A program made the position numbers and the translations under genes. DNA of 64,000 nucleotides from Anolis carolinensis (taxonomy: Eukaryota): the NCBI RefSeq assembly GCF_035594765.1, contig NC_085841.1:329725402-329789401 (forward strand). The letters are read 5' to 3'. The notes under the pieces are model-generated. The model was not told the DNA's origin, searched no databases, and saw nothing but the letters and a program-made list of their open reading frames with translations. Positions 5,121 through 10,154 of the stretch are shown one piece after another. The stretch's first letter is position 1. The number at the start of each line of letters is the position of its first letter.

Positions 5121-5772
5121 NNNNNNNNNNNNNNNNNAATAGATTTGAGCGGCTCCTCGAGACTATTTGATTATTTTTTTGTCAGCTGTGAAGAGCAGAA
5201 CAAACAATTCTGCGTATGTATGCTTGCCCACAATGTCCTACCTCATGTACAGAGGAGGAGTTGCTTAAAGCTACGGACAATGTAGTTGCTGTTGCCTGCT
5301 TTTGGTCTGACATTATTTAGTTGTTTTGTGATTTCCTCTATTTTTTTCATCATTTTTAAAATGTATTTGTTATGCAATGCTTTTGACACGAAATAGATAA
5401 AAGCTTGATGTATTGGTTTTGTTGTCCTTTGGTGCTCCTTTTCTCCAATTTGTTGGATCCTGTAGAGGATTGACACTCTAAACGCTTTCACGCTGGCCCT
5501 TTACTATCTCTACTCACTGTTCTCTCCTTTTCTACAGAGTCCTTCTTGCTCCTCATAAGTATATAAATCAGTCATATTAGCACCTCAGGCCTCTGTGGCT
5601 TAATTCAGTGGTTCTCAACCTTCCTAATGCCCCCAACCCCTTAATATGCTTCCTCATGTTGTGGTGACCCCCAACCATAACATTAGAATCATAGAATCAT
5701 AGAATAGTAGAGTTGGAAGAGACCACATGGGCCATCTAGTCCAACCCCCTGCTAAGAAGCAGGAAATCGCAT

Positions 5773-8703
5773 TCAAAGCACCCCCGACAGATGGCCATCC
5801 AGCCTCTGCTTAAAAGCCTCCAAGGAAGGAGCCTCCACCACGGCCCCGGGGAGAGAGTTCCACTGTCGAACAGCTCTCACAGTGAGGAAGTTCTTCCTGA
5901 TGTTCAGGTGGAACCTCCTTTCCTGTAGTTTGAAGCCATTGTTCCGTGTCCTAGTCTGCAGGGCAGCAGAAAACAAGCTTGCTCCCTCTTCCCTATGACT
6001 TCCCTTCACATATTTGTACATGGCTATCATGTCTCCTCTCAGCCTTCTCTTCTGCAGGCTAAACATGCCCAGCTCTTTAAGCCGCTCCTCATAGGGCTTG
6101 TTCTCCAGACCCTTAATCATTTTAGTCGCCCTCCTCTGGACGCTTTCCAGCTTGTCAACATCTCCCTTCAACTGTGGTGCCCAAAATTGGACACAGTATT
6201 CCAGGTGTGGTCTGACCAAGGCAGAATAGAGGGGGAGCATAACTTCCCTGGATCTAGACGCTATTCCCCTATTGATGCAGGCCAGAATCCCATTGGCTTT
6301 TTTAGCAGCCGCATCACATTGTTGGCTCATGTTTAACTTGTTGTCCACGAGGACTCCAAGGTCTTTTTCGCACACACTGCTGTCAAGCCAGGCGTCCCCC
6401 ATTCTGTATCTTTGATTTCCATTTTTTCTGCCGAAGTGAAGTATCTTGCATTTGTCCCTGTTGAACTTCATTTTGTTAGTTTCGGCCCATCTCTCTAGTC
6501 TGTCAAGATCGTTTTGAATTCTGCTCCTGTCTTCTGGAGTGTTAGCTATCCCTCCCAGTTTTGTGTCGTCTGCAAACTTGATGATCGTGCCTTCTAACCC
6601 TTCGTCTAAGTCGTTAATAAAGATGTTGAACAGAACCGGGCCCAGGACGGAGCCCTGCGGCACTCCACTTGACACTTCTTTCCATGATGAAGACGACGCA
6701 TTGGTGAGCACCCTTTGGGTTCGTTCGCTTAGCCAATTACAGATCCACCTAACCGTAGTTTTGTCTAGCCCACATTTTACTAGTTTGTTTGCCAGAAGGT
6801 CGTGGGGGACTTTGTCGAAGGCCTTACTGAAATCCAGGTACGCTACATCCACAGCATTCCCTGTATCGACCCAACTCGTAACTCTATCGAAAAAAGAGAT
6901 CAGATTAGTCTGGCATGACTTGTTTTTGGTAAATCCGTGTTGACTATTAGCAATGACCGCATTTGTTTCTAAGTGTTCGCAGACCACTTCCTTAATGATC
7001 TTTTCCAGAATTTTGCCTGGTATTGATGTGAGGCTGACCGGACGGTAATTGTTTGGGTCGTTCTTTTTTCCCTTCTTGAAGATAGGGACCACATTCGCCC
7101 TCCTCCAATCTGCTGGGACTTCTCCCGTTCTCCAAGAACTCTCGAAGATAATTGCCAGTGGTTCTGAAATAACTTCCGCTAGTTCCTTCAGTACTCTTGG
7201 GTGTAGCTGATCTGGCCCTGGGGACTTGAATTCGTTTAGAGAGGCCAAGTGTTCCTGGACAACTTGTTTCCCTATTTGGGGTTGGATTTCCCCCAATCCT
7301 TCGTCCATTCCGTGTTGCTGAGGTTGAAGATGGCTTTCTTTTTCTGAGAAGACCGAGGCAAAGAAGACATTAAGTAGTTCTGCCTTTTCCCTGTCCCCTG
7401 TCGCCATCACCCCATCTTCTCCTTGCAATGGCCCTATCGCCTCCTTTTTCTTCCTTTTTCTACCAACGTAAGCAAAAAAGCCTTTTTTGTTGTTTTTTAT
7501 GTCCCTGGCAAGCCTGAGCTCATTTTGCGCTTTAGCCTTGCGAACCTTTTCCCTACAGGTGTTGGCTATACGTTTGAATTCTTCTTTGGTGATTTCTCCC
7601 CTTTTCCACTTCTTGTGCATGTCACTTTTGAGCTTTAGCTCAGTTAGAAGTTCTTTGGACATCCATTCTGGCTTCTTTGCACTTGTCTTATTTTTCTTCT
7701 TTGTTGGCACTGTTTGTATTTGCGCCTTGAGTATTTCACTTTTGAAAAACTCCCATCCATCCTTAACTCCCTTGTTTTTTAATATCAGCGTCCATGGAAT
7801 GCCGCTCAGTAATTCCTTCATTTTTTGGAAGTCAGCTCTCTTAAAGTCCAGAATGCGTGTTTGACTTGTCTTAGTTTCAGCATTCCTTTGTATTGCAAAC
7901 TGCAGGAGCACATGGTCACTTGCCCCTAAGGATCCAACCACTTCAACTGTATTGATCAGGTCTTCCACATTTGTTAAGATTAGATCAAGAGTTGCTGATC
8001 CCCTTGTTGCCTCTTCTACCTTCTGGACCATAAAATTATCTGCAAGGCAAGTGAGGAATTTGTTGGACTTTGTACTCTTGGCTGAGTTTGTTTTCCAGCA
8101 GATATCGGGATAATTGAAATCGCCCATGACTACTATATCTCTTCTTTGTGCCTGTTTGGTCAGCTGTTGACAGAAGGCTTCATCAAGTCCTTCATCCTGA
8201 CTCGGAGGTCTGTAGTAGACACCCACGACAAGATCTTTTTGAGTCCCGGTTCCCTTGATTCTTATCCAGATGCTTTCAAGCTGGTTTCCCGGATTACAGT
8301 CTTGCATTTCTTCTGCAACGTAACTGTTTTTGACATATAAAGCTACTCCCCCTCCTCTCCCCTTTGTTCTATTTCTGTGAAAGAGGTTATAGCCCTCAAT
8401 GGTTAAATTCCAGTGATGGGAGTCATCCCACCAGGTTTCAGTGATGCCTATGACATCGTATGTGTGGTGCTGTGCTAGGAGTTGGAGTTCGTCTTGCTTA
8501 TTTCCCATGCTCTGAGCATTAGTGTAAAGACATGTAAGCCCCTGTGACCTCCCCTTGAACTGTTTATTTGGGATTATTGTGCTCTCTGTACTTGGTCCTT
8601 GCTGTGTTTGTGCAGCCCTCCGTTTAGCCTTTCGGCGGTTCTTTGTGGTCGTGGGTAATATAGTGTTCGCCAGGCTGTTGTTCCCCTCCCCCAGTGGATC
8701 TAG
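5773..8703 (-). CDS. CR1 ORF2: apurinic endonuclease + reverse transcriptase (frame open upstream of the first ATG at 8508, up to the ORF1 stop)
   Basis: Motifs: [27 protein letters not shown] (APE); [15 protein letters not shown] (RT). No stops in 911 aa plus 64 further in-frame upstream codons. Confidence 0.95.
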
Positions 8704-9971
8704 TTTAAAGTGCGCCTGATGAGGTTTGTGAGTCTGTGTGCAAAAAGATGTTTTCCTACTTGTGTGAGATGCACCCCATCGCTTGCCAGTAGTCCATCCT
8801 CTTGGAAGAGTAGACCATGGTCAAGGAAGCCAAAATGCTCCTCTTGACACCATTTTCTGAGCCAGTTATTGACCTGTACTATTTTTTCGGCCCTTGTAGA
8901 GCCGTGTCCTACAACAGGGAGGAGGGATGAAAAGATCACATGTACATTATACAGTTTTAGCTTTGTTCCCAGAGCTCGAAAATCATTTGTGATCTTTTGA
9001 AAAGTATGCCTAGCGGTGTCATTGGTACCTACATGAATCAACATAAGGTGGGGAGGGTGATGGGGCTTTAGGAGCCTGCTGAGCCTCTGAGTGATATGGT
9101 GTATTTTTGCCCCCGGGAGGCAGCATGTTTCTCGAGCCATCCCATCCGGTCTGGAAATGATGGCTTCCGTTCCTCTAAGGAGGGAGTCACCTACTACCAA
9201 GACCTGTTTCCTTTGAGGATTGACAGGCTCCCTTTTGTGCAAGACAGTGTTTATGTCCCCTGAAGAGTGTTCCTGTTGAAGTGAATCATGTAGGTGTAAA
9301 GTGTTGTCCTCCTCCTCAACATCCCCAGTGCATTCATCAATGACAATCCATTGAGATACATCCGAGAGCCCATTACTCTCCCAAGGATGTTCCTGTTGCT
9401 CCTGGTCTATGATTGGGGATGGAGCATTTGCATGATTACATAAGTGTGACTGTGGTGATGCACTCTCCCCGTCAGGGGTATCCCCTGCGCATTGATCCAG
9501 GGTGGTCCACTGAGTGGTATCTAAGAAACTGTGGTCCTCCACAAGATGTGTTTCCTGATTGTATGTTAATGATGTAAGAATTTCAAATCTGTTGTGTAAA
9601 TGCAGCTGAGCAGAGGAGTTCTGCGGAGGCTGCCTGGTCCTGCGTCTCCTTCTATGGGTGACCTCCTTCCAAGCCTGAGGGTTGTCTACCTTTGAGTTGA
9701 TCTCCCCATAAGGTTCCTGATCATGGTCTTGGTGGTGTTGGTGTGATGCAGGCTGCTGATCTACAGCAACGTGTTGTGCAGTGTCCAAGAAGAGCTCGAG
9801 TGCCTGAATGTCCTTAAGGGTCTTAATACGGTGCTCGAGCTGTTGGATCCTCTGCTCCATCAGAGTCATCTGTTTGCATTTGGAGCAGATGTAGTTGTCT
9901 AGTTTTTGTGTGAAAAAGCGGAACATGCCACAGCTGGTGCATGTGATGGGAATGTTTTGCTTTTGTTGCAT
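8700..9971 (-). CDS. CR1 ORF1p: zinc-finger/coiled-coil + SGNH esterase domain, 423 aa
   Basis: CTSC..CSKC zinc knuckle, a heptad-like segment ([15 protein letters not shown]), and VVGDSLLRG / HVGTND / DGVHL SGNH motifs. Confidence 0.93.
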
Positions 9972-10154
9972 CTCTTGGTGAGCGTGGTGGCCAAGTGGGA
10001 TCTTTGTACAGTTAAGTAATATGCACGCACTTTATGCGCAAACTGCAACAAACCACCTCTTTGTGTATTTGTTTATGTTGCTTTGTTTCCTGTATGTACT
10101 GCAAAGGATAGTTAGTAAAGGTGCCTTTTTCGTGCGCGCCGTCAGGCGCGCGCG

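Follow-up and report, generated by a model that had tools for sequence, protein, structure and literature searches.

A conserved slippery heptamer at the ORF1-ORF2 junction of an anole CR1 retrotransposon points to expression of ORF2 by -1 ribosomal frameshifting

A slippery site directly before the ORF1 stop codon

The stretch of DNA analyzed here (the window) comprises 64,000 nucleotides (nt) of the Anolis carolinensis genome (contig NC_085841.1, positions 329,725,402 to 329,789,401) and carries on its minus strand a CR1 long interspersed nuclear element (LINE) with a pair of open reading frames, called ORF1 and ORF2. The 3' end of ORF1 reads ACT TTA AAC TAG, and ORF2 lies in the -1 frame relative to ORF1. 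Comparison with relatives indicates that the slippery heptamer at this junction is a real, conserved recoding signal, and we infer that, with high probability, -1 frameshifting makes an ORF1-ORF2 fusion with a predicted length of 1399 amino acids (aa; 423 + 976). The features of the junction are as follows.

8703..8709, minus strand: slippery heptamer T_TTA_AAC, in X_XXY_YYZ phase with ORF1 and conserved in relatives
8700..8702, minus strand: ORF1 stop codon, adjoining the heptamer on its 3' side; TAG in this copy, TAA or TGA in relatives
8700..9971, minus strand: ORF1, encoding 423 aa when counted from its first ATG; carries an SGNH/GDSL esterase domain at the C terminus and ends in Thr-Leu-Asn-stop
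5773..8703, minus strand: ORF2 frame, 976 codons when counted from the shift point, encoding an APE endonuclease and a reverse transcriptase
8533..8703, minus strand: -1-frame linker to the APE domain, 57 codons with neither stop nor Met
8518..8520, minus strand: Asn in CLYTNA, the first APE motif; lies upstream of the first ATG
8683..8692, minus strand: candidate stimulator, a G-rich tract 10 nt past the heptamer that reads Gly-Glu-Gly in the ORF2 frame

From 8820 the ORF2 frame runs without interruption to its stop at 5775-5773, and its first Met, at 8508, is the 66th codon from the shift point and stands four codons past the Asn of CLYTNAQS. By ungapped extension of a structure alignment, this ATG corresponds approximately to residue 20 of the ORF2 protein (ORF2p) of L1. 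An earlier note made from the sequence of the window had described T_TTA_AAC directly before the ORF1 stop, a -1 ORF2 frame with a long open stretch lacking ATG, and a first ATG beyond the conserved APE Asn, and each of these observations is confirmed here. We see no conserved start codon for ORF2. In a scan for in-phase slippery heptamers (XXX-YYY-Z, where Y is A or T and Z is not G), none was found at the 420 other codon positions of ORF1, and 9 were found at the 973 codon positions of ORF2. Because such heptamers are rare at other codon positions and this one is conserved, its occurrence at the end of ORF1 is not due to chance.

Conservation of the ORF1 end in proteins and codons

At the protein level, 58 of 80 ORF1 homologues reach the C terminus and 55 end in register, of which 53 end in Leu-Asn-stop (two of these being the anole family itself). 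Their named sources are frogs, turtles, lizards, a snake, an alligator, and birds. A partly overlapping set gives a similar count: among the best 150 cluster representatives, 58 reach the profile end, with 49 ending in Leu-Asn, 7 running on, and 2 differing. Leu173 is invariant and Asn174 nearly so. In addition, 24 predicted proteins, most of them from a single species of stork and the rest from other birds and a wall lizard, read the ORF2 frame over the junction; they show Phe-Lys-Leu there, mostly with Gly-Glu-Gly five residues on, and reach the APE motif after 33 to 97 codons. One CR1 ORF1 protein in the searches (P0036) is labelled Klebsiella pneumoniae and looks like contamination.

At the codon level, metagenome contigs were scanned for two esterase motifs that lie well away from the junction; this gave 63 loci, 22 of them aligned to the ORF1 end. 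Removal of two loci stopping short and of one (L125) without a recognizable ORF1 end left 19 loci plus the window, mostly at 40 to 76% DNA identity, with three pairs at 80 to 89%. The terminal Leu codon is TTA in 20/20 sequences; in 15 other Leu columns, TTA accounts for 20/247. A T precedes the terminal Leu codon in all 20, although the residue that it helps encode is A, T, S, C, V, or I, and the column of this invariant wobble T ranks first among 56 four-fold columns. The Asn codon is AAC in all 15 loci that encode Asn. On a tree built without the junction, the last Leu and the preceding codon show 0 third-base changes, compared with 166 other columns that average 5.9 changes and have no fewer than 1. 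An older family in the anole genome adds one further lineage: a codon-degenerate pattern gave 39 matches (versus 1 for the reversed control), largely from that one family, with TTTAAAC in 28 of the 39 and a stop that is mostly TGA. Judging from these alignments, the heptamer site is under nucleotide-level constraint. The check proposed in the earlier note, whether heptamer and -1 phase are conserved among CR1 elements, thus came out in favor of its reading, as both are kept across divergent families with fixation at synonymous sites.

An APE motif was found within 200 codons of the junction in 14 of 54 junctions. Eleven of these 14 linkers lie in the -1 frame, at 33 to 90 codons each, and contain 0 stops over 604 codons; the other two frames of the same linkers contain 52 and 64 stops (the 52 including ORF1 stops). 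Five of the 11 in-phase linkers are free of Met. Database ORF2 models P0081 (window 8508 onward), P0118, P0160, and P0162 start after the first APE motif and therefore lack the N-terminal strand and its Asn.

A distant clade with another heptamer

With the ORF2 profile we recovered 17 LINE contigs contaminating prokaryotic assemblies, 15 of them with upstream DNA. In six loci of two lineages, T_TTT_TTA stands at the end of an esterase-like ORF1, with the stop one codon later in five. The ORF2 frame is in phase and open for 42 to 90 codons in four of the six, the other two being decayed. In one locus (L190), both frames are open and ORF2 spans 1003 codons; ORF1 relatives of L190 end in Phe-Leu-X-stop in 26/27 cases and in Phe-Phe-X in the remaining one. 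In three distant loci, whose ORF1 is of another kind, the stop is in frame and a slippery site is absent; the six others are too short, decayed, or mis-anchored (one mis-anchored locus, L192, is left out of the counts). As read from these junctions, what is conserved is the X_XXY_YYZ pattern and its phase, not one sequence. Because pattern and phase are kept while the heptamer itself differs, frameshifting is favored over a binding site, and we regard this as the strongest argument for it.

The contigs of this set (L185 to L201) are eukaryotic LINE sequences in prokaryotic genome bins and look like contamination. Two of them display a different arrangement, in which a non-esterase ORF1 and ORF2 share one frame with a single TGA between them (L193:1523-1528 and L188:1230-1235). 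The TGA is followed by CTA in L193 and by CAA in L188, which we take to be readthrough-type contexts. Other LINE lineages may hence fuse their ORFs by stop readthrough.

Proposed mechanism and candidate stimulator

The principal inference of the earlier note, a fusion of about 1400 aa made by -1 PRF (programmed -1 ribosomal frameshifting), is supported by the conservation of the site, by synonymous fixation, and by the second legal heptamer of the distant clade. Most ribosomes would stop at the ORF1 stop and release the ORF1 protein (ORF1p), and a minority would likely slip by -1 on U_UUA_AAC into the ORF2 frame. The fused product would then set the ratio of ORF1p to ORF2p, as that of Gag to Gag-Pol is set. 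By the canonical tandem-slip rule the main product would read Thr-Leu-Asn, then Leu (CTA, 8703-8701), Asp, and Pro; the trans-frame peptides predicted in the earlier note, in Leu-Lys and Phe-Lys forms, are at odds with it. On mammalian ribosomes, U_UUA_AAC is named as one of the heptamers most prone to shifting (PMC5009743; here and below, articles are cited for the portions of their text that were available).

The least certain step is the ribosome pause, which would probably be supplied jointly by two features, the neighboring stop and the conserved G-tract 10 nt downstream, the latter either protein-bound or as a G-quadruplex; a classical pseudoknot is a less likely source. Across 19 loci, G occurs in 14 to 18 at offsets +10 to +14 (16/19 at +10, 18/19 at +13), wobble positions included, against a background of 0.30, and a further G-run lies at +17 to +20. 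G4Hunter scores are at or above the 97th percentile in 13/13 loci scored. In the window, the 60 nt after the stop fold worse than shuffled sequences (-7.5 kcal/mol; z, +1.59; 192/200 shuffles as good). No stem-loop was found 5 to 9 nt downstream in a search of pseudoknot-free folds. The bulged stem that had been suggested about 5 nt past the heptamer is not the predicted fold and is not shared in 21 amniote-type loci. As a long-range partner for the G-tract, the best duplexes were rejected, since their positions are not shared across the same loci. A structured stimulator was looked for in this way and not found, and we do not claim a canonical -1 PRF cassette.

Two distant loci (L186 and L190) have a predicted hairpin about 10 nt downstream (z, -1.9 and -1.8). 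Three bird-like loci (L091, L100, and L112) show a 6- to 7-bp hairpin about 25 to 50 nt after the stop, followed by G-runs; the predicted combination could form a duplex-quadruplex and is not significant against shuffles. Natural G-quadruplex stimulators of frameshifting were not known as of a 2016 review, in its available text (PMC5009743), and the candidate G-tract is of separate interest for that reason.

A broader proposal is tentative, and we hold it to be more doubtful than the frameshift itself: esterase-ORF1 CR1 LINEs from amniotes and frogs to distant eukaryotes might all make a Gag-Pol-like fusion by -1 frameshifting, the amniote branch having replaced the hairpin of distant members with a new stimulator, namely the stop plus an unstructured G-tract 10 nt downstream that is protein-bound (possibly by ORF1p) or a natural G-quadruplex.

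Points against frameshifting and alternative explanations

Several observations weigh against frameshifting. Fifteen of the 20 loci carry the heptamer in full; the five misses look decayed, and three of the five have close relatives with an intact site. The Asn wobble position changed three times on the tree, which is unexceptional. The junction of one locus (L102) was placed by eye and that of L125 was dropped, and the 19 loci are mostly bird-like and from few sources, with no turtle or frog DNA among them. Three of the 14 linkers are out of phase, in decayed copies. Three of 97 ORF1 proteins (P0004, P0006, and P0236) end in Glu-Leu-Asn, which is incompatible with U_UUA_AAC; if the site is kept there, G or A before TTA AAC is implied. 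As an amino-acid test of the residue before Leu-Asn, this count (3/97 with a codon that cannot end in T) is uninformative, since other positions give counts equally low. No stem or long-range partner is common to the 21 amniote-type loci, and none folds below a z of -2. Finally, the ORF2-frame codon 2 nt past the stop is ATG in 6/20 loci and NTG in 11/20.

The last point bears on termination-coupled reinitiation, in which ribosomes stop at the ORF1 end and restart nearby in the -1 frame to make a separate ORF2p. We consider this the main rival of frameshifting, albeit an unlikely one. It could be AUG-independent, the form proposed for L1, or work by the stop-start route of SART1, and it could run beside frameshifting in some bird-like families. 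One locus (L111) has a TAATG overlap. Non-AUG codons are tolerated in calicivirus reinitiation, and reinitiation has been proposed for L1 and SART1 (PMC5972666). The UGGGA motif occurs at -100 to -30 from the stop in 10/24 loci, in eight of them 76 nt upstream within Asp/Asn-Gly codons; in the window, this interval lacks UGGGA, which at 40 to 90 nt upstream of the stop would be the sign of the calicivirus termination upstream ribosome-binding site (TURBS). Likewise, the window has no in-frame ATG within 10 codons of the ORF1 stop. The codon 2 nt after the stop is CCA in the anole family and TCG, GAC, or GCC in others, and in the 24 junction-crossing proteins it encodes Ser, Leu, Ala, Asn, or Val, never Met. 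Reinitiation, moreover, leaves the fixation of TTA, the invariant wobble T, and the switch to T_TTT_TTA unexplained.

Considerably less probable is an internal start of ORF2, at a linker CUG or at ATG 8508, reached by leaky scanning or through a G-rich element resembling an IRES (internal ribosome entry site), with the heptamer kept for another purpose such as protein binding. The context of ATG 8508 is indeed strong, with A at -3 and G at +4, the ORF2 of database entries begins there (P0081, 514 members), and a CTG in good context lies within the linker. However, initiation at 8508 cuts off the first APE motif, which in relatives aligns with the beginning of the PF03372 profile, both linker CTGs are altered in the closest older relative (L168), and the -1-frame openness of the linker extends right up to the heptamer.

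A fix at the RNA level, by splicing (for instance with the TAG as 3' splice acceptor), editing, or transcriptional slippage, is more improbable still. The CTAG looks like a splice acceptor, and exons are joined close to the junction in predicted genes (P0066 and P0079). Splicing is nevertheless unlikely because the acceptor AG is missing in TAA copies (7/44) and in the TGA family and because contigs from three of four runs, presumed by guess to be RNA, span the junction with no joint or indel; in addition, no long homopolymer lies at the heptamer site. Lastly, the idea that Leu-Asn arose by chance or merely caps the esterase helix, which would fit the invariant Leu173 and near-invariant Asn174, is highly improbable and already contradicted by the codon-level comparison of the loci above: selection on the protein cannot hold Leu to TTA when six codons are available, nor keep the wobble base at T where the residue varies, and ORF1 of the distant clade ends in Phe-Leu-X rather than Leu-Asn.

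The element and its family

Beyond the junction, the element comprises the following features.

5685..12793, minus strand: full-length CR1 LINE with both ORFs intact, of a young multi-copy family
10155..12793, minus strand: 5' array in which a 267-bp monomer, likely a promoter unit, is repeated 9.9 times without change
5685..5772, minus strand: short 3' untranslated region ending in the CR1 octamer repeat (ATTCTATG)n, as defined in PMC2612034

ORF1 matches the esterase family PF13472 (E value, 9e-11), and its profile matches a solved LINE ORF1 esterase (PDB 4c1b, "ORF1-encoded protein"; E value, 3.5e-32). ORF2 matches PF03372, PF14529, and PF00078 and is homologous to L1 ORF2p, as seen from its match to the structures of that protein (E value, 1e-42). 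The 3' end agrees with the octamer repeat (ATTCTRTG)n given for CR1 (PMC2612034), and vertebrate CR1 and L2 are described as LINEs with an esterase-type ORF1 (PMC13343379). By this combination of an APE and reverse transcriptase ORF2, an esterase ORF1, and the octamer repeat, the element fits the CR1 clade. Its nearest named homologues are reptile, bird, and frog proteins, the closest named proteins being from Anolis carolinensis (99%).

A first look at the anole genome gave 1068 candidate copies of the junction, of which the 40 scored are 99 to 100% identical. The heptamer is unchanged in 30/30 best copies fetched, a result that goes no further than excluding an error in the window copy. A protein search of the same family anchored 58 of 60 loci, representing 44 distinct copies, with TTTAAAC in 42 and TTTAAAT in 2; ORF1 stops at TAG in 35 copies and at TAA in 7, and 2 copies have lost the stop. 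The shared TAA of seven copies (L042, L045, L052, L053, L056, L057, and L059) suggests a propagated subfamily. Another copy (L038) has an in-frame deletion in the linker. One genomic copy with an 892-aa open frame (L154) was considered as a natural fusion and rejected, the junction being intact and the extra length lying upstream. Turtle and bird ORF1 queries found only this young family in the anole loci inspected. The ORF1 profile had no match in genome contigs or viral contigs, and the ORF2 profile none in viral contigs.

The 5' monomer arrays of other copies range from <1 to about 10 units. Rodent L1 has promoter monomers, which the anole CR1 array resembles. A literature search found no paper on this array.

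Comparison with known systems

In Rous sarcoma virus the stop lies directly after the heptamer, as it does at the CR1 junction. Coronavirus ORF1a/1b, in infectious bronchitis virus (IBV), shifts on the same heptamer, U_UUA_AAC (PMC5009743), and the U_UUU_UUA of human immunodeficiency virus type 1 (HIV-1) is the heptamer of the distant clade (PMC4373837). The proposed expression of CR1 likewise resembles retroviral gag-pol in pairing an abundant upstream protein with a rare enzyme fusion. Unlike these viral systems, CR1 lacks long terminal repeats (non-LTR), has no protease among its Pfam hits, and has a G-tract at 10 nt, no pseudoknot or stem having been found at 5 to 9 nt. PRRSV, the virus of porcine reproductive and respiratory syndrome, has a short unstructured motif about 10 nt downstream of its slip site. 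Frameshifting at its nsp2 is stimulated in trans by proteins (PMC5009743), and the likeness to CR1 is an analogy only: the viral motif binds poly(C)-binding protein, whereas that of CR1 is G-rich and without a known binder.

Among non-LTR elements of the APE type, TRE5-A and TRE3-A of Dictyostelium are stated in a review to require a -1 frameshift for ORF2 (PMC5911963), and they differ from CR1 in host and ORF1 type. Mammalian L1 and silkworm SART1 are also bicistronic LINEs with APE and reverse transcriptase domains, low ORF2 output, and homologous ORF2p. The first has a 63-nt spacer and is described as using AUG-independent reinitiation (PMC5009743, PMC3894237, PMC5972666), its ORF2 initiation being termed AUG-independent in PMC5009743; the second uses a UAAUG stop-start, and both make a separate ORF2p. 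CR1 differs in that its frames overlap at a slippery site. With the bird and reptile CR1 LINEs that have an esterase ORF1, the anole element shares domain layout and octamer tail.

Our literature search found no description of frameshifting in CR1, the founding CR1 papers and Repbase being outside its reach. The available portions of PMC13343379, PMC2734521, PMC2612034, and PMC4255032 do not describe the mode of ORF2 translation in CR1, and CR1 is not mentioned in the available text of PMC5009743.

Significance

ORF2 initiation in APE-type LINEs has been called an open question, with frameshifting not among the answers offered in the available text (PMC3894237), and in most vertebrates the dominant retrotransposons belong to the CR1 group (PMC13343379). 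Frameshifting would be a precise and cheaply testable answer to how such a LINE translates ORF2. If it holds, database ORF2 models that begin at the internal Met would lack the first endonuclease strand, and CR1 could be exposed to host frameshift inhibitors. ORF2p, for its part, would never be free and would instead be tethered to ORF1p via a variable linker, which would bear on particle assembly and cis-preference in these elements.

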